Assembly (NCBI GenBank): GCA_051872395.1
Contig: JBJEDU010000032.1
Location: 502 to 64,501 of the forward strand
Length of the DNA: 64,000 bases
Origin: Bacilli bacterium
Lineage (GTDB): Bacteria; Bacillota_I; Bacilli_A; RFN20; CAG-826
Reading direction: 5' to 3'
Position numbers and translations under genes: made by a program. Within the stretch, counting starts at the first letter, position 1. The number at the start of each line of letters is the position of its first letter. Below, in pieces: positions 6,030 through 55,976 of this stretch. A model generated the notes under the pieces. That model was not told the origin of the DNA. It saw only the letters and a list, made by a program, of their open reading frames with translations, and ran no database searches.

Positions 6030-6506
6030 ATGTTTAGAGTGGGATTTGCAAAAGATATTCATCGATTAGTCAAAGGTAGACCATTAATTTTAGGTGGTGT
6101 CACTATTCCTTTTGAACTTGGTGAAGACGCTCATAGTGATGGGGATGTTGTCTATCATAGTTTAAGTGAAGCAATGCTCGGCTCTTTAGCGTTAGGGGAT
6201 TTAGGTACATTTTATCCCACTGACGATGATAAATATTTAAATATTGATTCATCGTATTTTGTTAAAGGTTGTTATAAAAAGGTTTTGGATAAAGGTTACT
6301 CCATTGTCAATATTGATATATCTATCAATTTAGAGAAGCCTAAATTAAAACCATATTTACAAAATATGAGAGAAAATATATCTTCTTTATTAGAAATCGA
6401 TATTAAAAATATTTCTATTAAAGCGATGACGAATGAAAAACTTGATTCAGTTGGAGAAAATAAAGCCGTTGAATCATATTGCTATTTGTTAATTAAAAAA
6501 AATTAA
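6030..6506 (+). CDS. ispF: 2-C-methyl-D-erythritol 2,4-cyclodiphosphate synthase
   Basis: Zn-ligand motif DIHRL plus AHSDGDV. The whole 158-aa protein aligns to IspF (GGVTIPFELG...). Confidence 0.9.
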   Translation: MFRVGFAKDIHRLVKGRPLILGGVTIPFELGEDAHSDGDVVYHSLSEAMLGSLALGDLGTFYPTDDDKYLNIDSSYFVKGCYKKVLDKGYSIVNIDISINLEKPKLKPYLQNMRENISSLLEIDIKNISIKAMTNEKLDSVGENKAVESYCYLLIKKN

Positions 6507-16300: not shown

Positions 16301-16303
16301 TTG

Positions 16304-17491
16304 ATGTTTTCTATTATTGGCTTAGGCTATGTTGGAAGTGCTAATGCGACTTTTTTGGCTAAATCAAATGATGTTTATATTTACGATATCGATTCTAAAA
16401 AAGTTGATGCTTTATATTTAAAAAAACCTTTGATAAAAGACAAAGAATTATCAATTGCTTTAAAAGATAAAAATATCAAATTTATAAAAGGAGATTTCTT
16501 CACTAATATCAAAAATAGTGAATTTGTTTTGATTGCGACTTCGACAAATTTCGATGTCGAAAAAGAAAATTTAGATATTTCCTCTATTTGTGATGTTATT
16601 AGTAAAGTTAAAGATATTAATCCAGATGTTACTTTTATTATTCGTTCGACTGTTCCTATTGGAACTTGTCGATATTTAAAAGAAAAATATAAAATTAATA
16701 ATCTTATTTTCATGCCAGAATTTTTAAAAGAAGGTGAATCTTATTTAAACACTGTTCTACCTTCAAGATTAATTTTTGGTTATGATAAATCTAATGAATA
16801 TTTGACAAAAAAAGTTGATAAAATTGAAAAAATTTATACTTCATTATCTTTAGATAATAAAGTTAAAATATTTCACATGAATTATGAAGAAGCTGAATCG
16901 ACAAAATTATTTTCCAATACCTTTTTAGCGCTTCGTGTCGCTTATTTTAATGAATTGGATACATTTGCAAAAATGAATAATTTATCGAGCAAGGATATTA
17001 TCGAAGGTGTATGCGCGGATTCTCGCATTGGAAATTTTTATAATAATCCTTCCTTTGGTTATGGGGGATATTGTCTTCCAAAAGATAGTCGAGCGTTAAA
17101 ATCTTTATTTAAAAATATTCCTAATAACATTATTTCTAGTTGTATCGACGCGAATGAAACTAGAAAAGAATTTATTGCGAACGATATCTTAACAAGTGCA
17201 TTAAATATTTCTTCTAATCCAACGATTGGATTTTATTTATTAACGATGAAAAAAGATTCTGATAATTATCGGGAATCTTCCTCATTAAAATTATTAGAAT
17301 TATTGAAAAATAAAAATGTTAATTTATTAATTTATGAACCACTTATAAAAGAAGATGAATTTAACGGTATTAAAGTGATAAAAAATCTTGATGAATTTTT
17401 ATCTATATCAACGCTTGTAGTAATGAACCGTATTAATAAAAATATCAAACATTCTCATATTTATAGTCGGGACATATTTAATAAAGATTAA
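16304..17491 (+). CDS. Nucleotide-sugar dehydrogenase (UDP-glucose / UDP-ManNAc 6-dehydrogenase family)
   Basis: N-terminal Rossmann IIGLGYVGSANATFLA. Catalytic Cys motif GGYCLPKD. The listed start at 16301 is TTG and the ATG is at 16304. Confidence 0.85.
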   Translation: MFSIIGLGYVGSANATFLAKSNDVYIYDIDSKKVDALYLKKPLIKDKELSIALKDKNIKFIKGDFFTNIKNSEFVLIATSTNFDVEKENLDISSICDVISKVKDINPDVTFIIRSTVPIGTCRYLKEKYKINNLIFMPEFLKEGESYLNTVLPSRLIFGYDKSNEYLTKKVDKIEKIYTSLSLDNKVKIFHMNYEEAESTKLFSNTFLALRVAYFNELDTFAKMNNLSSKDIIEGVCADSRIGNFYNNPSFGYGGYCLPKDSRALKSLFKNIPNNIISSCIDANETRKEFIANDILTSALNISSNPTIGFYLLTMKKDSDNYRESSSLKLLELLKNKNVNLLIYEPLIKEDEFNGIKVIKNLDEFLSISTLVVMNRINKNIKHSHIYSRDIFNKD

Positions 17492-17522: not shown

Positions 17523-18815
17523 ATGATTGAGCTTAAAAATTTAGAAATTTCCAAATCAAAAAAGAAGAATGATAAAGTTAACGTTATGTTCCCTTTAGGA
17601 ATATATTATTTAGATTCTTATAGTAAACATATTTTCTCTTTTCTTTTATTCGATAAGGAATTAGAACAAGTTAAAGGTCAATTATTAGTTGATGATGTCG
17701 ATTTATTTAGTAGCGAAGATTCTACTTTCTTTTCTTTAAAAATCAACTCTAAATTTGGTTCTTTTTATTCCTTTTTTGTAGTTGATAAAAACGACAAAGA
17801 AAATCAAAGAGCAGAGATTATTAATGCTTTTCAAGCATTGAAAGATTTGCCTCATGAAAACGAAGAACAAATCAAAGAAAAGATTTTAGCGTTATTTAAT
17901 TTATATGTTGAGAAAAACGCGAAATATATTTGTGTTGATTTTAATGAAGTAGCGAATAAAGAACATGAAAATATCATTATTGAAAACATGACTGATTTCC
18001 AAGAAAAATTAACTTTCATTTGTTTGAAAAGGAAAGTCATTATAAAAGAGGATGAAATTAAAAAAGATAATTCTTCTATTAAATCTAATGAAGAAGATGA
18101 ACTAATAGAAGAAAATTATTCAAATGAAGAGGTTAATAAAGAGAATGTTGAAACTCAAGCAAATGTCACCTCTTTAAATTTCAAAGGAATGGAAGATCAT
18201 GTTGAAATCGATAAAAAAGAAACCGCGCCTCTATTAGAATTTGATACTTTTAATATTGGATTTATTGCTGAAGAAAAGGAAAATAAACCAAGCGAAAAGA
18301 AGAAAAAGAAAAATATTACTAAACCAATAAAAAAATTCGTTGGTTTCTTCAATAGAAATGTTCTTGTTAGTGTATTAATTTCTTTTGCTTGTTTACTTAT
18401 CGTTTTGTTCTCTATGCTTTTAATCTATTCGTTTAAACATAGTAAATTGTTTGATTCTATCTTAATTTTATTAGTGACAATCATATCATTCTCTGTTTCT
18501 ACTTTCATACAAGTATCTTCTTTTGACTTTTTAAAAGGGAAACCGATTAAAATGCAAAAAGAAAAATATGTCTACACTTTAGTGCTCATTGAATTATCAA
18601 CGTTTGTCGGTATTGCTTTAGGCTATGGTATATTTGCGTTATTTTATAATTTAAATTTCTTGTTAGATAGCGAAAAATATATTGCCGTTTATTCAATTGT
18701 CGCTATCATTTTATCTATTGTTGCCTTTATTGTTCCTTTACTTGCTCCAATCGTGTTAAAGATTGCAAAAAAGGTTAAATTATTTTTTACAAGCGCAGGT
18801 ATTAAAAATAAATAG
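17523..18815 (+). CDS. Hypothetical membrane protein: roughly 270-aa acidic cytoplasmic N-domain plus four C-terminal TM helices
   Basis: ORF with a K/E-rich linker and hydrophobic segments from about residue 290 onwards. No known motifs. Confidence 0.45.
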   Translation: MIELKNLEISKSKKKNDKVNVMFPLGIYYLDSYSKHIFSFLLFDKELEQVKGQLLVDDVDLFSSEDSTFFSLKINSKFGSFYSFFVVDKNDKENQRAEIINAFQALKDLPHENEEQIKEKILALFNLYVEKNAKYICVDFNEVANKEHENIIIENMTDFQEKLTFICLKRKVIIKEDEIKKDNSSIKSNEEDELIEENYSNEEVNKENVETQANVTSLNFKGMEDHVEIDKKETAPLLEFDTFNIGFIAEEKENKPSEKKKKKNITKPIKKFVGFFNRNVLVSVLISFACLLIVLFSMLLIYSFKHSKLFDSILILLVTIISFSVSTFIQVSSFDFLKGKPIKMQKEKYVYTLVLIELSTFVGIALGYGIFALFYNLNFLLDSEKYIAVYSIVAIILSIVAFIVPLLAPIVLKIAKKVKLFFTSAGIKNK

Positions 18816-19668
18816 ATACTGCTTTATATGCATCAGTCGCTAAATCGATGAAATGCTTCGCTACTTCCTTGAAGTTGTAGCCGTGGATTTCGCCTTCTTT
18901 ATTAAAGTGTTTAAATTCCGCTAAAAAGGCCCATTGTAAGGCGATAGCGATTCTAAATAAATAGAACTTAATTTTTTTATTATCATCTAATTCATCTTGA
19001 TAATATGCTTCTAATAATTTTTCACCATCGATTAATTTATCGTTGGCAAAACACGCTATATCGTAGAGTGGATCATTTTTCATCATAAATTCAAAATCAA
19101 TTAATAAATATTGATTGTCATCTGATAAAACTATATTACTTTTTTGTAAATCGTTATGAGATAATACTTTCTCTCCGTTTTCTAATAAACTTCTTTTAGA
19201 AAAAATAAATTTTTCTAATTCTAATAATTTAGTGTCGTATTTTAAATTATTTTTTATCCCTAATTGATGATAGTCAGTAATTTGTTTAAATATATCGTAA
19301 GTAAGATTTACTCCGTCAGTGGAAACTCGATGGAGTTTTTTTAAAGATTCCGCTAAAGCGGAAATATCAATTTCTTCATCCTTTAAAAAATTTAAAGAAG
19401 TTCCTTCGATGAATTCATTAATTTTAATTCCTGTCTCAACATCAAAATATATATTTTTGCTAGTTAATCCTGCTTCATAAACTTTTCTTTGAACAAGTTT
19501 TTCATTGTCACGGTCCACTAAATCATTTGAACCTTTTCCAGGAATATAAATAATATATCTTTTATTATTTGATGAAACTAAATATGATTCATTCATCATT
19601 CCACCAAATATTCTTTTCTCTATTTTATATTCATTAAAGACTTTATTTAATATTGTAGTTTCTTTCAT
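18802..19668 (-). CDS. Choline/ethanolamine kinase–aminoglycoside phosphotransferase family kinase (LicA-like)
   Basis: Catalytic loop HNDLQKSNIVL and Mg-binding LIDFEF (the Brenner motif HxDxxxxN...D). Confidence 0.75.
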   Translation of the reverse strand: MKETTILNKVFNEYKIEKRIFGGMMNESYLVSSNNKRYIIYIPGKGSNDLVDRDNEKLVQRKVYEAGLTSKNIYFDVETGIKINEFIEGTSLNFLKDEEIDISALAESLKKLHRVSTDGVNLTYDIFKQITDYHQLGIKNNLKYDTKLLELEKFIFSKRSLLENGEKVLSHNDLQKSNIVLSDDNQYLLIDFEFMMKNDPLYDIACFANDKLIDGEKLLEAYYQDELDDNKKIKFYLFRIAIALQWAFLAEFKHFNKEGEIHGYNFKEVAKHFIDLATDAYKAVSIYF

Positions 19669-27196: not shown

Positions 27197-27658
27197 TTAT
27201 AAATCTTTTCTTAACGCTAAAACATTAAGAACACTAGCGACGATAGAAAACGCTAAAGTTAAATATGGTCCAGGTAAAGTGGTTAATTTAGAAAATGAAT
27301 CGATCATTCCGTTAGTGAGAGAGAACCATAATTGAGTTAACATGACAATGACTGCACCAACGATAGTTAAGCACACTGCGCTGATGAGAACAATCTTTTC
27401 AACTTTAATTGATATTTCAACAGGCGGCAAAGCAATGATGAACACTTCTATTAAAGCGACAACAATTAACATATAGCCAACAAAAGTAGGCCATGAACCA
27501 TTGATAAATCCATCCGCGGAATTGAAAAATATTTGACTAGCGTTATAAATTTTTCCATTCATCATACTAAGAGATGGAATAAACATCATCAAAATCGCCA
27601 AGGCACTAAATAGTAAACCAATCCACATTAATCCAACACTTGATATACTTTTTTTCAT
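27197..27658 (-). CDS. Hypothetical 4-TM membrane protein
   Basis: Hydrophobic ORF. Its size and topology are similar to the next gene, so it may be a tandem paralog. Confidence 0.5.
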   Translation of the reverse strand: MKKSISSVGLMWIGLLFSALAILMMFIPSLSMMNGKIYNASQIFFNSADGFINGSWPTFVGYMLIVVALIEVFIIALPPVEISIKVEKIVLISAVCLTIVGAVIVMLTQLWFSLTNGMIDSFSKLTTLPGPYLTLAFSIVASVLNVLALRKDL

Positions 27659-27670
27659 ACAACAGACTCC

Positions 27671-28168
27671 TTATTTCTTAAAATTTTCTAGATATAGAAC
27701 AGTTCCAGAAGTAGCCATCATCAAAAACGTTACGATAATAGCTATGATTGGTGTCGTTGATAATTTAAAATTTGTTTTAGTAATGGAAGATAACGCATCA
27801 ACATAACCCGATTCAAACGATGCAGGAATAACAAATAATAATACGACACTGACAAGTAATAAAACTAAAGAAGAAACAGTGATAATCATTGATATTCTTT
27901 TATCCATTTTCTTAATGAATATTGGTAATGCCATTAATATTCCAACGATAAGTATGATTACATAAGCGAAAAATCCTGTAATGTTTGGTTTTATAGTATT
28001 TGATGAGTTGCCTTCAAAAAATACTTCAGCAAAAGTGTAAGTATATTGTTCGCTAATTGATAATTGTTCATTTGTAATAGTGAGAATTACTTGATTACCA
28101 AACAACATGCAAAAACCTAAAACCGCTAAAACAACTGTTACCAATCTTATGATTTTATTTAGTTTCAT
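27671..28168 (-). CDS. Hypothetical 4-TM membrane protein
   Basis: Hydrophobic ORF 12 nt upstream of the previous one. Confidence 0.5.
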   Translation of the reverse strand: MKLNKIIRLVTVVLAVLGFCMLFGNQVILTITNEQLSISEQYTYTFAEVFFEGNSSNTIKPNITGFFAYVIILIVGILMALPIFIKKMDKRISMIITVSSLVLLLVSVVLLFVIPASFESGYVDALSSITKTNFKLSTTPIIAIIVTFLMMATSGTVLYLENFKK

Positions 28169-28259: not shown

Positions 28260-28700
28260 TTAGGAATGGGTGAATTTCATTAAATAACGGGAATTCTTTA
28301 TATTTTTAATTATTTTAAATCCATGCTTTTCATATAAAGAAATTGCTTTTTTATTATTAATAAATACAAATAAATAAATTGGTTCTTTTGTGGATGACAA
28401 ACAATTTGAAATTATTTTTGAACCAATTCCTTTATTTCTAAATTGTTCAAATACATATAAATCTTCAATTTCGTATTTTCCTTCTTCATTTCTTGAAAAA
28501 TGAAAATAACCAACTTTTATGTTATCGATATAAATTGTGTTATATTCATCAATTTTATCTATTATTTTTTTATGAACAAAATCTAAAACTTTTTCATAAT
28601 TAATAGCGCTTATATTCTCATATTCATCAATTAATTGCTTAGAATATTTAAAAATTATCTCAATATCTTCCTTTTTAGATTTTTGATATGTTAATTCCAT
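28260..28700 (-). CDS. GNAT-family N-acetyltransferase
   Basis: Acetyl-CoA binding motif VFEQFRNKGIGSKII (Q/RxxGxG/A). Confidence 0.8.
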   Translation of the reverse strand: MELTYQKSKKEDIEIIFKYSKQLIDEYENISAINYEKVLDFVHKKIIDKIDEYNTIYIDNIKVGYFHFSRNEEGKYEIEDLYVFEQFRNKGIGSKIISNCLSSTKEPIYLFVFINNKKAISLYEKHGFKIIKNIKNSRYLMKFTHS

Positions 28701-28753: not shown

Positions 28754-28786
28754 AAAAAACCTAGATACAATCTAGGAAATTTTTAT
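28754..28786. terminator. Palindromic intrinsic terminator downstream (minus strand) of tRNA-Leu(GAG)
   Basis: AAAAAACCTAGAT-ACAA-TCTAGGAAATTTTT. It is near-identical to the hairpin at 19701. Confidence 0.7.
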
Positions 28787-28788
28787 AT

Positions 28789-28872
28789 TGGTGCGCGAGA
28801 TGAGACTTGAACTCACACGATGTTAGTCATACGCCCCTCAAACGTACGCGTCTACCATTCCGCCACTCGCGC
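28789..28872 (-). tRNA. tRNA-Leu (anticodon GAG)
   Basis: GCGCGAG acceptor, anticodon stem UACGU/GCGUA with loop UUGAGGG, long variable arm, encoded CCA. Confidence 0.8.
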
Positions 28873-28917
28873 AACAGCGCTTATTTATTATCTTTTATTT
28901 CGCTAGAAATATCAAGA

Positions 28918-30906
28918 TTAAATATAGTTAAAGTTTATAAATAAATGAAATAATAGTGAAGATATGCAATATATAGAAATTATTGTTACAAAAATATTTG
29001 TTATAGTTTTATTAAATTTATTTTTCTGATTTGATAGATATTGAATTATAAACCCAACTAAAAGAGCAAAAGTAAAATATAAAATTCCTAAATATCTAAA
29101 GTCCATCGTACAAGCATATGGCATTTGAATATTAAACAAAAGAAACGAAACGATGAACGTAAATGTTGGTGCGATAGCGAATACAATATTTAAATAATTT
29201 TTATTATTAAACACTTTCTTTTTAATTATCAAAATTAAAGATGCAATTGTTAAAGAAATAAATACAAAGAATAAAATGTACCCAATAACATCTTTTTTAA
29301 ATAAGAAGACGATTGATAAATATAAAGAAACAATCAATGTAAAGACATATAGAGTATTAAATTTTTTCTCTTTTGTCATTTTAATCACTATATAAATAGT
29401 GACTAATATCAAAGATACAAAAAGTAAAGTATTCGCAACATATAAAATGACGCTAGTGTATAAGTTAGTATATGAAAATTCTCCAAAGATGGAAGATTTT
29501 AGCATTGATACATAAATATTATAGTCTTGTGGGTAAGCGGTATTTGATGCCCATAATTGCATAAATATATTGGAAAAATATTGAGAAAAAGGAAAGATAA
29601 CAAATCTTTGAAAATAATTTTTTGTTGGGTCCACTAATAAGTTGTGATTAAGATTATCCCAGACATAATTAAATGGCTGATTATAATTTAAATAATTATA
29701 AATAGGCCAATACATTCCGATAGGGAAAACGATTATCGCAAATGTTATAAATAATCCAAAAGCATATAATGTTTTTTTACTTTTAATTAATTTGATAAAT
29801 ATATAGACAAATTCAAAGAAAATAGGAATAGCGATCATCGCTCCACTAACTTTTGAAGCCATGCCTAACCCAATTGAAAACGCTAATAAAATTATTGTTT
29901 TAAAGTTTTGTTTATAGAAAAATTTTATAGCAAGATAAACTGAAGCGTGAATAAAAAACCATAGAAGTGGATCGTTATTACTCATTGCGCTCACTCTAAT
30001 TAAAAATGGTGAACAAACAAATAATAATAAAGAAATAGAAATGGCTTTTTCACTCTTTAGAAATAAGCGTAGTGTTTTATAAGTAAAATATAATTCTAAT
30101 ATTGATAAAGTCGTCGTTAAAATTCTTATTGATTCATATAAAACAAATGTATCTTTTGTGTTTAAAACAAAAGACATAAAATGCATAAAATAAGCATACG
30201 TATAATGAGCAAATTTAGGATGATAAAATTGATAAGAAGCTTTTAATGATGGTAGTTGATTAGCGTCTAAAAGTAAATCAGGAATCTTGTTGTAATAATA
30301 GATGTGCATCGTTATAGAATAATGTCCGTTGTAGTTTAAACTCCACACATCGTATTGTCGGGTAAAAATGTTATCGGTAATATTCATATAAAATAAACGA
30401 ATTATTATACCGATAAAGGCAATTAAGATAATTGTTCTTTTAAATGATAATTTCTTTTTGAAATGTAAATAAAATAAAGCAAATAAAATTAAAGAAATCA
30501 AAATGAAAGAAGTAATAAAAACATCTAAGTGATTGATGCTATTAACAAAATTTCTTCCAGCTGTTTGAAGCGCTTGTTTATCGGCTTTTAGTATATTAGG
30601 CTGATATAGATTTAAATTGAGGCTTCCTTTAGTTAAAGAAAATATTGCATAACTAATAAATGTTAAAATGAAGACTAAAATAAAAGCATATAAAAACGAT
30701 AATTTACTTCGATATAATCGTAAAATTATATTTTTTAAATTCGTTAATGCATCATCTTTAGTTTCTTTAAAATATTGTATTGGATGCGTTGACAATTTTA
30801 AAAAAGAATACGTAACTTTTCTTTTTGCTAACAATGAATAGATAATTAAAACAAAAAACAATAATAAAAAAGATATAGCGATTATGAAAGGAATATTATT
30901 TATCAT
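28918..30906 (-). CDS. Polytopic GT-C superfamily glycosyltransferase (ArnT / PMT_2-like, polyprenyl-phosphate-sugar dependent)
   Basis: 662 aa with about 14 predicted TM helices and short loops. The arrangement is typical of the ArnT / protein-O-mannosyltransferase-like family. It overlaps the upstream oxidoreductase gene by 11 nt. Confidence 0.6.
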
Positions 30907-32446
30907 CTTTTTTACTCTCGTGATATTCTTTTTCTGTATTTACTTTCCAGATGATAGATTTATCTAAATTATTTTTAATACAATTGACCGCTTCAATACT
31001 GGTCAATATTGAATGATCCATATTATTATAACGATGTTGTCCGTTTCTACCTATACAATATAGGTTAGAAATTTTATTGAGTTTTTCTTTTAAAACTTCA
31101 ATTTCATTATATGTATCAAAATATCCAGGATATGCTTTTTTAATTCTTAATACACAGCTATCTTTAACATCATCTTTACTTTTAATAAATTTAATTTTTA
31201 AAAGTTCATCGATCGCTGAAGAGATGAAATCATCATCATTTGAGTTCCACATTTCATCATTTTCATTTACAAAATATTCTAATCCAATCCAAATGGAATT
31301 TTGATAATCTTGAACCATGTATGGAGACCAGTTATTAAATATTTGAATTCTTCCAAGTTTGACTTCCTCTTCTTGTACATAAATCCAAGTATCAGGAATG
31401 ATATTATTAACTGTCTTAATTTTTGTTTTATTAGTAACTGCTAAAGAGTCAAGCAATAATCCAACAGTCATAAAATCTCGATATGATAATCCAGTAGCGA
31501 TGCGATATTCTTCTTTTCCTAAATCTTTTTCACCGATGGAAATCGCTAAATCTTTTAAACTCATCGATGAAAAATAATAATCGCCAACATATTCTTGATT
31601 GTCCTTTGTGATGACTTTTTTTATTTCATCATTTTCCAAAATAACTTTATTAATTTCTTGATTAAAATGAATCTCTCCTCCTAATTCAACAATTTTTTCT
31701 GCCATTAATTCATATAATTGACCTGGTCCTTTTTTCGGATAATAAAATTGTTCAATTAAAGAAGTTTCAACTTTTTTATTCCCTTTTTTAAATGGTTTAG
31801 TTATCGCATTAGTAATGGTTTTTAATAAAGAAAGACCTTTGACTCTTTGCGCTCCCCAACCTGCATCAATTTCTTTTGGGCTTCTTCCCCATACTTTTTC
31901 TGTATATTTTTCAAAAAACATTTGATAAAGTGGTTTACCAAAACGATTAATATAGAAATTTTCTAAATTAGTTTCTTTTCTTTTGTGGATGAGACTACCG
32001 ACGTAGCCAAATCCTGCTTTCATGGTTCTTTTAAAACCCATATTTTTAAAAGTTTCAAATTTCAAAGAAATAGGATAAGAGAAAAATTTATGAAGGTATA
32101 AAATTCTCGATACTCTATTTCTTATGAGCATGACATCATCATCTTTTTCAGGATCTTTTCCATTATTGGAAAGTGGAATATCCCTATTAAGTTCGATATC
32201 ATCTTTACTTTTTTGTGATTGAAGAGGCATTATTTCAAGCCATAAATTCATGACTTCTTCATTTTTAGTAAAAAAGCGATGACCACCAATATCCATTCGA
32301 TTGCCATGATGGTTATAGGTTTTACTAATTCCACCTATCTCATTACTGGCTTCTAAAACGATTGGTTTAATATCTGTAGTTTTTAATAATTGGTACGCTG
32401 CACTTAATCCAGCAGGACCTGCTCCGATAATAATGGCTCTTTTCAT
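30896..32446 (-). CDS. FAD/NAD(P)-binding Rossmann-fold oxidoreductase (UDP-galactopyranose-mutase / amine-oxidase-like superfamily), 516 aa
   Basis: N-terminal dinucleotide-binding motif [15 protein letters not shown]...[14 protein letters not shown] followed by GGHRFF. Confidence 0.7.
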
Positions 32447-32451
32447 TAAAT

Positions 32452-32958
32452 TTAATCCTTATATAAAATATATTTTCTTGTAAAATAGTTCCAAATTAGA
32501 CCAACGATAGTTTTTAAACAAAAACATATGAAATAGGTCCAAAATGTTATGTCAGTAAAAAATGAAAAATTAAATATATCAGTCAAACTTGATTTTGATA
32601 TATCAATATTAAAGCATTTTAAAACAATGACTTGACTTAAAGACATTGTCAGTACTGATAAAACTAAGCCAATAAAAGAAAAAACAACGAATAGCACAAT
32701 AAATTTTGCACTTTTTTTCTCTTTTTTGACCTCACCTTTTTTAAATACATAATAGGTCGATAAAATGTAATTTAAAATGACACCACCAATAAAACCAACA
32801 GCGGTCGATAAGATAATTGCTACTATATCGTTGATATTTGTGGTAAAAACTAAAACAAGTTTACAAAGTAAAAAATCAACTAGAGCACATAGAACCCCAG
32901 TTAATATAAATCTCACTAATTGTTTTAAAGAAGAATTATCCTTTGCATTTAAAGACAT
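32452..32958 (-). CDS. GtrA-family membrane protein (polyprenyl-phosphate-sugar flippase-like)
   Basis: 168 aa with 4 TM helices. The N-terminus [18 protein letters not shown] is typical GtrA. It lies 5 nt upstream of the oxidoreductase. Confidence 0.75.
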
Positions 32959-32966
32959 ATATTAAA

Positions 32967-34391
32967 TTATAATCCTAGTAGTGGAGCGAATACTAGTGTC
33001 CACAAAGTGAAATAACTAAGCAAAGCAATTATATCAACCACAGTAGTGGTAAGTGGTCCACACATAACTGCCGGATCTCTTTTTAAAGCTTTTGCTAAAA
33101 ATGGTAGACTACATCCAACCATTCTTGAGGCAATCATCGTAATAAATAAGGTTAACGCTACTAAGGTAGCGATGATGATTCTTAATAACCAAATATTTGA
33201 AATGGCAGTATGGTTTTCAAAAGAAACAATTCCTACGGACATTTCAATCATAATCCATACGAAAGAAACTGTGGAAATTATTAAAGCAATAACAGACGCT
33301 ACTCTAAATTCTTTCCAAAATACTTTTTTCACATCACCTTTTTTAAATTCATTTAAGGCGATTGAACGAATAATGATTGTCGTTGTTTGTCCTCCAGAAT
33401 TTCCGCCAGCGTCCATAATTAGAGGAGTAAAAACACTAAGAAGGGCGAATTTAGCAATTTCAGCTTGGAAAGATGAAAGAATCAAAGTTGAAAATACTTG
33501 AAGAACCATCAATAAAATAATCCAAGGCGCACATTTTTTAACCAATTTTAAAATTGGTGTATCTAAATATGCATCATCCATTGGGCCAGTTTGATGCATT
33601 AAGGCGATATCTTCAGTTGCTTCTTCAACGATAATGTCGACGACGTCATCGATGGTGATAATACCACATATTTTGTTTTCACTATTGACGACCGCCATCG
33701 CGTTAAGGTCATATCTTTTAAATAGTTCGGCAACTTTTTCTTGGTCATCATTAACGGTTGCAGTTACAAAAGAAACATCCATAATATCGGATAATTTTTC
33801 TTCTTCATTAGCGAACAACAAATCATCGAGGTTAACAGTACCAACAAGAGTTCTTTTAGAATCTCTAACAAAGATGGTGTAAATAGTTTCGGCTTCTCGA
33901 CCATTTTTTCTTAATGTGGCAATTGCGTCTTTGACAGATGTAGTTTCAAGCATTGAAACATATTCTGTAGTCATGACACTTCCAGCAGTATTTTCTTTAT
34001 AATTTAATAAAACATTTATATCTCTTCTTAAATCACTTGGGGCTACTTTTAACACCCTCGCCACTAAATTAGCAGGCATTTCTTCGATGGTATCAACGAT
34101 ATCGTCGGCGAATGAGTTTTCTAAAAGTGTCACTAATTGTTTATCAGTAAAGGAATTAATAATTAATTCTTGTTGCTCAGTAGTAAGTTCAGCGAACAGT
34201 TCAGCGCTATATTCGCTTGGAATAACACGAAAAATATATATTAAAGAAGTAACATCTTCCACATCACACAAAGCTTCTGCAATATCGATTGTGGGAACAG
34301 ATGTAAAAATTTCTTTTAACGATTTGGAGTTCTTTTCTTTTAAATCGTTTTCTAGATTTTCTTTAAATATTTCAAATTCTTCTCTTTCCAT
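32967..34391 (-). CDS. mgtE: Magnesium transporter MgtE
   Basis: N-domain, tandem CBS domains (GSVMTTEYVSM...) and a C-terminal 5-TM MgtE domain. 474 aa. Confidence 0.9.
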   Translation of the reverse strand: MEREEFEIFKENLENDLKEKNSKSLKEIFTSVPTIDIAEALCDVEDVTSLIYIFRVIPSEYSAELFAELTTEQQELIINSFTDKQLVTLLENSFADDIVDTIEEMPANLVARVLKVAPSDLRRDINVLLNYKENTAGSVMTTEYVSMLETTSVKDAIATLRKNGREAETIYTIFVRDSKRTLVGTVNLDDLLFANEEEKLSDIMDVSFVTATVNDDQEKVAELFKRYDLNAMAVVNSENKICGIITIDDVVDIIVEEATEDIALMHQTGPMDDAYLDTPILKLVKKCAPWIILLMVLQVFSTLILSSFQAEIAKFALLSVFTPLIMDAGGNSGGQTTTIIIRSIALNEFKKGDVKKVFWKEFRVASVIALIISTVSFVWIMIEMSVGIVSFENHTAISNIWLLRIIIATLVALTLFITMIASRMVGCSLPFLAKALKRDPAVMCGPLTTTVVDIIALLSYFTLWTLVFAPLLGL

Positions 34392-53251: not shown

Positions 53252-53358
53252 TATTAAATGAAATGTCCCCCATTTTTTTCCTAAATAAGGTAAGAAATGG
53301 TGGATTTTTTATTTTCCATAACAATTTTATATATAAATATAGTAAAATTATCTTAATT

Positions 53359-54207
53359 ATGAACGACTTACAAAAATGCCAATTAAATATTTTAAAACAA
53401 TTTATTAGAGTGTGTGATAAATACAATCTTCGTTATTTTTTAGTGGGTGGTTCTTGTTTAGGCGCGATACGACATCAAGGTTTTATTCCTTGGGATGATG
53501 ATATTGATGTTGGAATGCCAAGAGAAGATTTTGAAAAATATATTACTTTGCAAAAAGAATATGAAGGGACAAATTTCTTCATTCAAACATATAAATCAGA
53601 TCCTTGTTATATTTATAATTACGCTAAATTGCGTGATAGTGGAACGACATACATTGAAAATATTTACAAATATCATCGAATTAATCATGGTGTATGGATT
53701 GATATTTTTCCAATTGATGCTTTCGTAAATAAAATTATGCCGAGAGAAAAATATGCAAAAAGTGTGAAATTTGTGTGGTGGAATGTCTATTTGTCTTATT
53801 TACCGGCTTTACGAAGAAAAGTTCATAAACGAACATTTTTTAAAGATATTGGTTTGAATATTATTGCAGGTTTATCTTATATTTTTGATATCAATCATTT
53901 TAGAAACAAAAGAATTGATAAATATACTCAAAAATATAATAATTCTGATTCAAAAATGTATGGTAATCACTTCGGTTTTAACGTTAAAAAAGAAGCGATG
54001 GATAAACAAATATTCTTTGAGTATATCAAAGTGAAATTTGAGGATATTGAAGCAAATGTTCCAAAACAATATGATACATATTTAACTAATCTTTATGGAG
54101 ATTATATGAAATTTCCTCCAATAGAAAAACAAGTTGGACATCATTTGAATAAAGGATTTTCTTTGTCTATTGGATATGAGCAATATATTAAAGAACACAA
54201 AATCTAA
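53359..54207 (+). CDS. LicD-family phosphotransferase (phosphocholine / ribitol-phosphate transferase type)
   Basis: LicD motif YFLVGGSCLGAIRHQGFIPWDDDIDVGMPRED. ATG 53359 is the probable start, because the listed upstream start at 53263 overlaps the tRNA-Ser flank. Confidence 0.8.
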   Translation: MNDLQKCQLNILKQFIRVCDKYNLRYFLVGGSCLGAIRHQGFIPWDDDIDVGMPREDFEKYITLQKEYEGTNFFIQTYKSDPCYIYNYAKLRDSGTTYIENIYKYHRINHGVWIDIFPIDAFVNKIMPREKYAKSVKFVWWNVYLSYLPALRRKVHKRTFFKDIGLNIIAGLSYIFDINHFRNKRIDKYTQKYNNSDSKMYGNHFGFNVKKEAMDKQIFFEYIKVKFEDIEANVPKQYDTYLTNLYGDYMKFPPIEKQVGHHLNKGFSLSIGYEQYIKEHKI

Positions 54208-54225: not shown

Positions 54226-54936
54226 ATGAATTATGCGTTGATTTTAGCCGCAGGAACTGGCTCAAGAATGGGAAATACTGATAAACCAAAACAGTTTCTT
54301 CCAATTTATGGAAAACCTTTGGTGGTTCATACTGTTGAAGCTTTTGAAATGCATGAAGAAATCGAAGGAATTGTCATCGCGACCAATGAAGCGTATGTTG
54401 ACCAAGTAAAAGTTTGGTGTAAACAATATGATTTAAGCAAAGTTAAAGCAGTAGTGGCAGGTAGTGATTCTCGTCAAAAGAGTGTTTTTAATGGATTAAT
54501 GGCTTTAAAGAAATTTGTTAATGATGATGATATCCTTTTAATTCATGACGCTGCTAGACCACTGATTTCATCAAAAATAATTTCTGATAATATCAAAGAA
54601 TGTCAAATTTCTGATGCTGTCGATACAGTTATTAAAGCATCAGATACCATCATTTGTAGTAAAGATGATAAAACAATCGATAATATTCCAAATAGAAGCG
54701 AATTATATCAAGGTCAAACTCCTCAAACATTTAAATTTTCATTAATTATAAAAGCTCATGAGATGGCAATGAATAATGTTGTTAATAATGTTACTGATGA
54801 CGCAAAATTAGTTTTATCTCTTGGTTATAAAGTTTCTCTTGTTGAAGGAAGTAAACAAAATTTTAAAGTGACAACTTTCGATGATTTAATGATGCTAAAA
54901 GCGCTTTTGAAAATCGGAAAAACTGAGGTTTTATAA
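54226..54936 (+). CDS. tarI: Ribitol-5-phosphate cytidylyltransferase (TarI / IspD family)
   Basis: Motif ILAAGTGSRMGNTDKPKQFLPIYGKPLV. RBS AGGAG is upstream. It is followed directly by a TarJ-like reductase. Confidence 0.8.
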   Translation: MNYALILAAGTGSRMGNTDKPKQFLPIYGKPLVVHTVEAFEMHEEIEGIVIATNEAYVDQVKVWCKQYDLSKVKAVVAGSDSRQKSVFNGLMALKKFVNDDDILLIHDAARPLISSKIISDNIKECQISDAVDTVIKASDTIICSKDDKTIDNIPNRSELYQGQTPQTFKFSLIIKAHEMAMNNVVNNVTDDAKLVLSLGYKVSLVEGSKQNFKVTTFDDLMMLKALLKIGKTEVL

Positions 54937-55976
54937 TGTTTACAAATATATATAAAGTAACTTCTCCAGGTGTCATAGAAGAATTTGTTGATACAGTCGA
55001 TATTGAAAATAAAGTTGTCGTTAAGATTGATACGATGGCTATTTGCAAAGCTGATATCAGATATTATAAAGGCGATAGAGATCCTTTTGTCTTAGAACAT
55101 AAATACCCTTTAGCTCCTATTCATGAGGCTGTTGGTGTAGTTATTAAAGACCCAACAAATACCTTTAAAAGTGGTGATAAAGTAATTCTTGTGCCTAATT
55201 CAATAGAATTCGATGAAGAAATTAAAAAAGAAAAAAATCGAAGAATGTTAAGAAAAGATTTGGGTGAAAATTACTGTCAAAACGCTATATTTAGAAGCTC
55301 TAACGCTGATGGATTTTTAAGACAATACTATTCTTGTGAGCCTTCTCAACTTGTTAAATATGATGATTCTGTCGAATCAAAATATGCGGTATTTTCTGAA
55401 CTTTTATCCGTTTCGAATGCAGCGATTAGAAGGATAGATTTTTCTTCTGTCAATAAATTGGCAATATTTGGTGATGGAATAATGGGATATATGACATATG
55501 TCATGATTATTTCTTCCCATCCTGAAGTTGATTTAACTGTCTTTGGCACTAATAAAGATAAATTAGCGTTATTTAAAAAGGCTAAAACATTTTTAACAAA
55601 CGAATTTAATGGTGAACAATTCGATACACTTATCGAATGTGTCGGTGGAGCGTTTCAAGAAAATGTTATTGACTCAATGATTTCTTTTTCAATTGTTGGC
55701 GCGGATTTGATTCTTATGGGTGTCAGCGAAAATAAAGTTAAAATTAATACGAGAAAAATATTAGAAAAAGGACTTTCACTTAAAGGAGTAACTAGAAGTT
55801 CAAAAGAAGATTTTGTTCTCGTTAGCGAATTTTTGAATAAAAGCGAATTTGTTGATTTATTGAAACCTTTAGTTATTTCTATTAATCAAATCAATAATTT
55901 AAACGATATTTATAATTGTTTTACCAAAGAAATTGATAATAAAACAGTTGTTGGTAAAAATTTATTAATTTGGTAA
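54936..55976 (+). CDS. tarJ: Zinc-type alcohol dehydrogenase (TarJ-like ribulose-5-phosphate reductase)
   Basis: MDR-family ADH fold (ICKADIRYYKGDR, GHEAVG-like PIHEAVGVV, GxGxxG-like FGDGIMG). Its start overlaps the tarI stop (ATAATG). Confidence 0.7.
   Translation: MFTNIYKVTSPGVIEEFVDTVDIENKVVVKIDTMAICKADIRYYKGDRDPFVLEHKYPLAPIHEAVGVVIKDPTNTFKSGDKVILVPNSIEFDEEIKKEKNRRMLRKDLGENYCQNAIFRSSNADGFLRQYYSCEPSQLVKYDDSVESKYAVFSELLSVSNAAIRRIDFSSVNKLAIFGDGIMGYMTYVMIISSHPEVDLTVFGTNKDKLALFKKAKTFLTNEFNGEQFDTLIECVGGAFQENVIDSMISFSIVGADLILMGVSENKVKINTRKILEKGLSLKGVTRSSKEDFVLVSEFLNKSEFVDLLKPLVISINQINNLNDIYNCFTKEIDNKTVVGKNLLIW

Follow-up and report, generated by a model that had tools for sequence, protein, structure and literature searches.

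We analysed a three-gene operon on the minus strand of a 64,000-nucleotide stretch of DNA from a Bacilli bacterium (contig JBJEDU010000032.1). This stretch, at its full length, is referred to below as the window, and its first letter is position 1. In the order of transcription, the operon comprises gtrA (32958..32452, 168 aa), a gene for a flavoenzyme resembling UDP-galactopyranose mutase (UGM) (32446..30896, 516 aa), and a gene for a GT-C transferase (30906..28918, 662 aa), all delimited by the list of open reading frames (ORFs). Reading of the junction sequences showed that gtrA and the flavoenzyme gene are separated by a 5-nt gap (TAA-ATTTA-ATG) and that the flavoenzyme and GT-C genes overlap by 11 nt (ATGATAAATAA). 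The operon is flanked by mgtE and tRNA-Leu(GAG). This layout, described in an earlier note on the same DNA (the original prediction), was reproduced in full using the ORF list, the junctions and ARAGORN; the family assignments made there were supported by Pfam matches to GtrA_DPMS_TM, Amino_oxidase/NAD_binding_8 and PMT_2/PMT, all above the gathering thresholds. On balance, and with modest confidence, we propose that the operon encodes an extracytoplasmic furanosylation system that would add a furanose to a cell-surface acceptor outside the cytoplasmic membrane.

Fold and active site of the flavoenzyme

The flavoenzyme matches the NCBIfam model PRK07208.1-2 over its full length (748.8 bits against a cut-off of 418, residues 2–513), an equivalog named just 'hypothetical protein'. 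In a search of all Protein Data Bank (PDB) sequences with the single flavoenzyme sequence, the best match was the UGM of T. cruzi (4dsg, E 3.1e-18), followed by that of A. fumigatus (AfUGM, E ~1e-12); a profile built from a 20-sequence family alignment (A1) improved these values to 2.9e-23 and ~4e-22, respectively. An AlphaFold2 model of the protein (pLDDT 84.3, pTM 0.86) was compared with known structures using Foldseek. The top 34 matches were eukaryote-type UGM chains (TM-score 0.72–0.82, 18–21% identity, E ~1e-28), and the next were HemY/CgoX/protoporphyrinogen oxidases and phytoene desaturase (TM-score ~0.6–0.78, 12–15% identity). The sole low-confidence segment of the model encompasses residues 201–230 (pLDDT <50).

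We next consider the active-site residues. The GxGxxG FAD-binding motif, GAGPAG (residues 8–13; 32408..32425, minus strand), occupies invariant columns in alignment A1, and the histidine loop GGHRFF (residues 54–59; 32270..32287, minus strand) places H56 and F59 at the positions of AfUGM H63 and F66; both motifs had been quoted in the original prediction. R201, the equivalent of AfUGM R182, belongs to a conserved basic flap (residues 201–231; 31754..31846, minus strand), which we infer from the model to correspond to the mobile substrate flaps of eukaryotic UGM. In HMMER match lines, F177 and W186 are paired with AfUGM F158 and W167, with T182 at the position of N163. The match lines of the profile with PDB sequences also delineate the C-terminal active-site segments (31010..31387, minus strand), in which W354, Y356, R366 and W373 correspond to AfUGM W315, Y317, R327 and Y334, Y439 to Y419, and R467, Y473 and N475 to R447, Y453 and N457. 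In a region not aligned by HMMER, Y124 is probably the equivalent of AfUGM Y104, a provisional mapping.

To probe individual residues, PDB sequences of AfUGM point mutants were scored against the family profile, a drop from the wild-type score marking a conserved position. The wild-type 3ute construct scored 81.5 bits. The scores of H63A (76.9 bits), F66A (77.3) and Y317A (76.8) were 4.6, 4.2 and 4.7 bits below this value, and those of N207A, Q107A and Y104A were 81.9, 81.7 and 81.0 bits. Against 81.8 bits for the wild-type 3uka construct, R182K scored 79.7 (2.1 below), R327A 78.3 (3.5 below) and R327K 79.8. These scores show that H63, F66, R182, Y317 and R327 align to conserved positions of the family, and that N207 and Q107 do not. 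Among 71 family members from genomes, H56, F59, F177, W186, R201, W354, Y356, R366, Y439, R467, Y473 and N475 are each conserved in 70–71 (H56 and F59, as H/F, in 70; R201 in 70).

In AfUGM, the diphosphate is held by R182, Y317, R327, Y419 and Y453, the galactopyranose (Galp) is bound by R182, N207 and N457, and the uracil is stacked by Y104 and F158 and hydrogen-bonded by Q107 (PMC3624792 Table 3). In 70–71 of the 71 members, the family thus keeps a counterpart of each of the five diphosphate ligands, of N457, which binds Galp, and of R447, which binds FAD. The position of AfUGM N163 is occupied by T180 in Deinococcus UGM (PMC3624792 Table 3), with which T182 of the family agrees.

The likeness to the eukaryote-type UGMs of A. 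fumigatus and T. cruzi extends over the three-domain fold, the FAD site, the GGH loop, the two arginines and three tyrosines on the diphosphate, the equivalents of N457 and R447, and a poorly modelled segment where UGM has its mobile flaps. The differences are the low sequence identity, a family-specific segment at about residues 74–115, the replacement of Q107 and N207 (see below), and the genomic coupling to GtrA and a GT-C protein, with some members fused or membrane-anchored; the described UGMs lack such coupling and anchoring. The UGM machinery for a sugar-1-diphosphate substrate is thus kept in full, apart from the uracil hydrogen bond and the sugar contact of N207. By sequence and predicted structure, the flavoenzyme is a homologue of UGM, closest to the eukaryote type, and we predict that it is a pyranose-to-furanose mutase.

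A different role within the amine-oxidase/CrtI/HemY superfamily, as an oxidase, desaturase or reductase acting on the sugar (for example, on a keto intermediate) or on the polyprenyl carrier, appears very unlikely. It would agree with the Pfam matches to Amino_oxidase and NAD_binding_8, with the matches of the N-terminus to phytoene desaturase and HemY models, and with the rank of HemY and phytoene desaturase as the closest structural neighbours after UGM. However, in the NCBIfam scan the HemY, CrtI and Glf models cover only the N-terminal FAD-binding ~70 residues and score far below their cut-offs (TIGR00562, 28.5 bits against 97.85; PRK11883 models, 29–43 bits against 406–560, N-terminus only), and the UGM-specific residues outside the FAD site are invariant. 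The identification as HemY or another protoporphyrinogen oxidase, under which some database records misannotate the family (others read 'NAD(P)/FAD-dependent oxidoreductase'), was rejected on the TIGR00562 score and the lead of UGM chains in Foldseek. The genomic context agrees, as no heme genes, and likewise no carotenoid genes, were seen among the ~40 of the 63 window ORFs that were scanned against Pfam.

The original prediction envisaged a redox or mutase step on the sugar donor. The part of this proposal that concerned a mutase and furanose formation is supported by the UGM-like fold and residues. The other part, oxidation-epimerisation in the manner of DprE1 on an unrelated fold, is not supported: because the catalytic and diphosphate-binding residues are kept, a redox-neutral mutase acting on a diphosphate-linked sugar fits better than an oxidoreductase of a polyprenyl-monophosphate sugar.

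GtrA and the GT-C transferase

The GtrA protein matches PF04138 (GtrA_DPMS_TM) with 40.3 bits (cut-off 26.1) and does not reach the narrower NCBIfam gtrA_1 subfamily model (21.4 bits against 50). A Kyte-Doolittle scan revealed four hydrophobic helices within its 168 residues. We propose that it may serve as a flippase or handler of a polyprenyl-phosphate sugar, noting that translocation of such sugars is disputed even for Rv3789 (PMC12992685).

The 662-aa protein, named 'ArnT family glycosyltransferase' by NCBI, matches PMT_2 (41.6 bits, cut-off 26.1) and PMT (35.7 bits, cut-off 22.7) over residues 251–400 and has the polytopic core of the GT-C fold, preceded by N-terminal helices that canonical GT-Cs lack. 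Its homologues are few and divergent (40 matches, 25–73% identity). In an alignment of 31 GT-C sequences (A5), Y173, D186, H195, Q226, Y228-H229-P230, N310-N311, K352, G475-E476, C599, D602, R604 and Y605 are invariant. Placing the K/R-rich loops 27–35 and 150–156 in the cytoplasm, as the positive-inside rule demands, puts the segment 177–231, with RQYD186 and GH195, outside the membrane, where it would form the first large extracytoplasmic loop of the GT-C core. The loop feature itself (residues 170–195; 30322..30399, minus strand) includes the invariant D186 and H195. The acidic residue expected in the predicted first loop of such an enzyme is present in all 31 homologues as D186, a candidate catalytic acid. 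We predict from the fold that the protein is an extracytoplasmic transferase using a polyprenyl-phosphate sugar donor.

Distribution, fusions and genomic surroundings

The flavoenzyme belongs to a large family of unusually high conservation. The search for its homologues returned at least 8000 matches, the best 120 of which are all at least 62% identical to the query. At E <= 1e-30, relatives form 1058 clusters at 50% identity (search of cluster representatives), and at least 597 species genomes carry one (one genome per species scanned). The best 80 of these loci (at least 597 in total), with 56–70% identity, come from Clostridia, Bacilli, Bacteroidales, Treponema and one Riflebacteria metagenome-assembled genome. 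The cassette, originally linked to mollicute-like Firmicutes, is therefore not specific to them, being found also in Clostridia, Bacteroidales and Treponema.

To characterize the neighbourhoods, ORFs were called in the best 80 loci and searched with iterated hidden Markov models. A GtrA homologue adjoins the flavoenzyme gene in 37 of the 80. A polytopic neighbour was defined as an adjacent protein encoded on the same strand, with at least 400 aa and at least six transmembrane segments predicted by a simple hydropathy scan. In 39 loci the flanks extend for 2.5 kb or more in both directions; a polytopic neighbour is present in 29 of these, GtrA in 21, and one or both in 33. The polytopic neighbours are extremely diverse (mean column identity 11%): when 55 polytopic proteins (that of the window and 54 neighbours) were scanned, 17 matched PMT_2, 4 matched DUF2142 and 1 matched DUF6020, and about 30 matched no Pfam family. 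DUF2142 and DUF6020 are taken here to be GT-C-like. All remaining neighbours are unrelated genes of a housekeeping kind, among them one for fumarase. The large soluble proteins (681, 701, 804 and 1258 aa, among others) proved to be U32 peptidases, GH3, GH31, RNA polymerase beta' and RelA/SpoT, and were rejected as parts of the system because they reflect lineage synteny. In related Bacilli, the order mgtE-gtrA-flavoenzyme-PMT_2 GT-C is kept (loci L001 and L082-L085), so the three genes are syntenic among close relatives.

The conserved unit is a two- or three-gene cassette (GtrA, flavoenzyme, GT-C) in varying contexts. Its recurrence in different phyla shows that the genes do not lie together by chance. 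The combination of a constant flavoenzyme with a variable GT-C is what would be expected if the flavoenzyme defined the donor and the GT-C the acceptor.

The cassette proteins could nevertheless be neighbours without a common pathway, the mutase making UDP-furanose for cytoplasmic glycosyltransferases whose genes lie elsewhere, and GtrA acting with the GT-C in an unrelated glycosylation. Six of the 39 loci with full flanks, which have neither GtrA nor a polytopic neighbour, would suit this explanation, as would one homologue (P0184) that is fused to a cytoplasmic GT4. It is, however, the least probable of those considered here: the pairing is conserved across four phyla while all other neighbours change, the genes are translationally coupled in the window operon, and fusions of the flavoenzyme to GtrA and to polytopic domains have arisen independently.

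Such fusions were found among the cluster representatives. Pfam analysis identified flavoenzyme-GtrA fusions (P0164, P0255), and fusions to polytopic membrane domains occur in P0168 and P0177. An in-frame fusion of the latter kind in locus L029 might reflect an assembly indel and is considered only together with the independent P0168 and P0177. The more distant members P0266 and P0304 carry a C-terminal extension of ~100 aa with two hydrophobic helices, a predicted transmembrane hairpin that represents a third, independent mode of membrane anchoring. P0302 is fused to a genuine UDP-glucuronate decarboxylase (UDP-xylose synthase, UXS; E 1.9e-103 to human UXS1), P0184 to the GT4 mentioned above, and P0167 to a methyltransferase. 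All these fusion proteins keep the catalytic residues. The UXS and GT4 fusions imply that family members handle UDP-sugars, and the fusions to GtrA, GT-C and transmembrane anchors imply that the enzyme works at the membrane with those partners. Two further long members, P0006 (660 aa) and P0010 (724 aa), were rejected as fusions; they contain exact internal duplications of 140–200 residues, which are probably metagenome assembly artefacts.

A paralogous subfamily of the flavoenzyme bears an acidic, low-complexity C-terminal tail of 400–1600 aa (P0162, P0165, P0176, P0188, P0196, P0204, P0224, P0232, P0234, P0239 and P0245), which in most members ends in the conserved motif IDTSIVFKNA[RK]VIK[ST]TKI ... 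KVIAVI[KR]NGE. In P0204 and P0245, at least, the residues corresponding to R201, Y439, Y473 and N475 have been lost, so these proteins are probably not mutases.

Variant cassettes were also observed. In two Bacteroidaceae loci, a 344-aa gene lies between gtrA and the flavoenzyme gene (L042, 4942-5973; L078, 874-1908). Considered at first sight as a family 2 glycosyltransferase (GT2), it was rejected as such and identified as a GalE-like short-chain dehydrogenase/reductase (SDR), with a hydrophobic stretch in its C-terminal third (…LMIAGMKACFALGISPLGPY…) that is unusual for soluble UDP-sugar 4-epimerases. In a Ruminococcaceae metagenome contig (L086, 13742-17569), the order is GtrA-flavoenzyme-716 aa-565 aa, followed by a protein with a weak cohesin-domain match and then by a protein of >1651 aa. 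Cellulosomal proteins of some clostridia carry galactofuranose-containing O-glycans, and protein glycosylation is a possible role of some cassettes. Carriage by phages, as known for gtrABC, is essentially excluded, with one match in 2.9 million viral contigs; this sole match (L088, IMG/VR contig IMGVR_UViG_3300029013_000066) is a flavoenzyme relative of 57% identity.

In the window, mgtE (34391..32967, minus strand; Pfam MgtE_N, CBS and MgtE) encodes a 474-aa Mg2+ transporter and ends 8 nt before the gtrA start (32959-32966), so the tight unit consists of four genes with mgtE first. The transporter is probably not part of the glycosylation function; it has no obvious functional link to the cassette, though glycosyltransferases commonly need Mg2+ or Mn2+. 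On the other side, tRNA-Leu(GAG) (28872..28789, minus strand) was located by ARAGORN 45 nt past the GT-C stop codon, with a promoter-like site directly upstream (28915..28887). The sequence after the tRNA contains a hairpin with a T-run that resembles an intrinsic terminator (28776..28760, minus strand). This hairpin, the only one of its kind on the operon strand beyond the operon, is the likely end of the transcription unit, and the tRNA may be transcribed both by read-through of the operon and from a promoter of its own.

Past the tRNA, and on the same strand as the operon, lie a GNAT acetyltransferase gene (28700..28260) and genes for two small multi-transmembrane proteins without a significant Pfam family (28168..27671 and 27658..27197); the GNAT gene and the first of these two are also found 3' of the cassette in Logan contig L081. 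Elsewhere in the window are genes for a member of the UDP-glucose/GDP-mannose dehydrogenase family (16301-17491), a 430-aa ORF with no Pfam match (17523-18815), choline kinase (19668..18802, minus strand), LicD (53263-54207) and an ADH-like protein (54936-55976). UDP-glucuronate also serves as the precursor of UDP-xylose. These other surface-glycopolymer genes suggest phosphocholine or teichoic-type decoration. The ispF gene (6030-6506), invoked originally as a link to polyprenol supply, is irrelevant here because it is a housekeeping gene 22 kb away.

The proposed pathway, its alternatives and known systems

In the furanosylation pathway that we favour, the flavoenzyme with reduced FAD, whose fold and residues are UGM-like, would first turn a diphosphate-linked, most probably UDP-linked, pyranose into the furanose at the cytoplasmic face of the membrane. 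A polyprenyl-phosphate glycosyltransferase of the GtrB/CsbB type, encoded outside the operon and the window, would then load the furanose onto undecaprenyl phosphate. GtrA, as a member of its family, would flip or hand over the lipid-linked furanose, and the GT-C protein, with its fold and acidic loop, would pass the sugar on to an acceptor outside the membrane, for instance a teichoic-acid-like polymer, a lipoglycan or a protein. Within the cassette, the choice of donor would fall to the conserved mutase and, presumably, that of the acceptor to the highly variable GT-C. The UXS fusion P0302, the GT4 fusion P0184 and the loci with the GalE-like SDR indicate that the substrate is probably a UDP-sugar. 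Candidates for the transferred sugar are galactofuranose and a pentofuranose (L-Araf or Xylf); a pentose substrate, UDP-Xyl directly or UDP-L-Ara after 4-epimerisation, is a possibility raised by the UXS fusion and by isoleucine at the N207 position. A search of the 64-kb window found no SDR epimerase or UXS and no second copy of gtrA, the flavoenzyme gene or the GT-C gene.

Several observations weigh against this pathway. By its sequence, the flavoenzyme is outside the curated GLF family, as the GLF models are unmatched over its full length: the match to TIGR00031 is limited to residues 4–79 and reaches 41.4 of the required 303.75 bits, and PF03275 was not reported for the window protein in the Pfam scan, with distant family members giving sub-threshold GLF matches. 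Neither the uracil hydrogen-bonding Q107 nor the Galp ligand N207 is conserved; to their positions we assign S127 and I231 of the family. The second of these assignments was counted from the HMMER match line, and the first is provisional, relying on what we take to be the 'YPFQNN' segment of AfUGM. A GtrB-like GT2, with a GT-A domain and two C-terminal transmembrane helices, does occur inside some cassettes (L027, L039, L063 and L079), but one is found near the flavoenzyme gene in just 7 of the 80 loci, mostly of Bacteroidales and Treponema. None was found by searching the operon and the whole 64-kb window or among the Pfam-scanned ORFs, so the lipid-loading step is assumed rather than observed. 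Canonical bacterial Glf already yields UDP-Galf, which makes the purpose of a separate, membrane-tied family puzzling. Finally, the flavoenzyme is repeatedly found anchored to the membrane, as would be unusual if it were a soluble nucleotide-sugar mutase, a hint that its substrate may be lipid-linked.

A less probable alternative is that the flavoenzyme acts on the lipid carrier itself, in either of two ways. The first, which we regard as rather unlikely, is that a pyranose attached elsewhere to undecaprenyl phosphate or diphosphate is ring-contracted by the flavoenzyme, flipped by GtrA and transferred by the GT-C. This would explain why the flavoenzyme is coupled to GtrA and a GT-C rather than to cytoplasmic glycosyltransferases, and why it is repeatedly fused to GtrA, to polytopic domains or to a two-helix anchor. 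The gene order also resembles the mycobacterial order Rv3789(GtrA)-dprE1-dprE2-aftA. That pathway has been outlined previously (PMC11127046). Loss of the uracil-specific Q107 is consistent with a lipid-linked substrate, and an undecaprenyl-diphosphate sugar would still engage the five conserved diphosphate ligands. On the other hand, retention of all five ligands fits poorly with an ArnT/PMT-type monophosphate donor, the aromatic stacking partners and contacts of the nucleotide in AfUGM (F158, W167 and probably Y104) have counterparts in F177, W186 and Y124, and the fusions to UXS and GT4 point to nucleotide sugars. A lipid-linked pyranose/furanose mutase is not known, and none was found in the literature searched.

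In the second version, the usual covalent flavin-sugar adduct would be formed from a UDP-pyranose and, after ring contraction, resolved not by UDP but by undecaprenyl phosphate presented by GtrA, so that undecaprenyl-phosphate-furanose would be formed directly, without a GT2. Such a mutase-transferase would account at once for the retained UDP/diphosphate site, for the absence of a GtrB-like gene from 73 of the 80 loci and from the window, and for the flavoenzyme-GtrA fusions, which mirror the type III DPMS architecture of a catalytic domain plus GtrA-like transmembrane segments (PMC12992685). The chemistry is without precedent, though, and is deduced from gene content alone; seven loci do have a GtrB-like GT2, and the GT2 of Gram-positive three-component systems is often unlinked anyway. 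We consider this version improbable.

We compared the favoured furanosylation pathway with described glycosylation systems. In the three-component systems GtrA/GtrB/GtrC of Shigella and Salmonella phages, and CsbB/GtcA/YfhO and GtlA/GtcA/GtlB of Bacillus and Listeria, a GtrA-family protein likewise acts with a GT-C on a polyprenyl-monophosphate sugar outside the membrane (PMC8035078, PMC7389260, PMC11127046). In contrast to these, the window cassette has no GtrB/CsbB-type synthase and contains a UGM-like mutase instead, is not phage-borne, and is predicted to use a furanose donor. Its gene logic echoes the mycobacterial decaprenyl-phospho-arabinofuranose pathway (Rv3789 GtrA-DprE1-DprE2-AftA). 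However, DprE1 is an FAD oxidase of the vanillyl-alcohol-oxidase fold that, with DprE2, epimerises lipid-linked ribose at C2, the sugar coming from phosphoribosyl pyrophosphate (PRPP), whereas the window flavoenzyme, homologous to UGM, is predicted to catalyse a redox-neutral reaction of a diphosphate-linked sugar. The cassette also has a parallel in the pentofuranose three-component systems, which combine a polyprenyl phosphoribose synthase with a MATE flippase and a GT136 GT-C (Kelly et al. 2024, PMC11127046). Their donor derives from PRPP via a UbiA-type synthase and their flippase is of the MATE type, whereas for the cassette we predict that a flavin mutase produces the furanose, and GtrA takes the place of the small membrane partner. 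Thus, the cassette is predicted to differ from all compared systems in having a UGM-type flavin mutase as the donor-defining enzyme, usually without a linked synthase. Published work on Actinoplanes gsf and on the lactococcal CWPS was considered and found to be unrelated to the cassette. No description of the PRK07208 family or of a lipid-linked galactofuranose donor was found in the literature, a search that covered few subscription journals and may have missed prior work.

Furanose sugars are absent from mammals and are targeted by innate lectins such as human intelectin-1, and UGM and DprE1 are objects of drug discovery. To our knowledge, the extracytoplasmic furanose routes onto the bacterial surface known so far, those of mycobacterial arabinan and of the 2024 pentofuranose systems, start from PRPP. 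The proposed pathway, if correct, would be a second such route, based on a flavin mutase and present in hundreds of cultured and uncultured gut and rumen species of Clostridia, Bacilli, Bacteroidales and Treponema. It raises the question of how the sugar reaches the lipid carrier when no GT2 is present. Should the flavoenzyme instead act on the lipid carrier, in either version, an activity without precedent would be widespread in gut and rumen anaerobes, and in the transferase version GtrA, flavoenzyme and GT-C would make up a complete, GT2-independent glycosylation system. The furanosylation pathway would also give a role to this large family, whose annotation reads 'hypothetical protein' or 'NAD(P)/FAD-dependent oxidoreductase', and the cassette, with its two or three genes, would be a compact marker by which microbiome genomes could be screened for furanosylated surface glycans.

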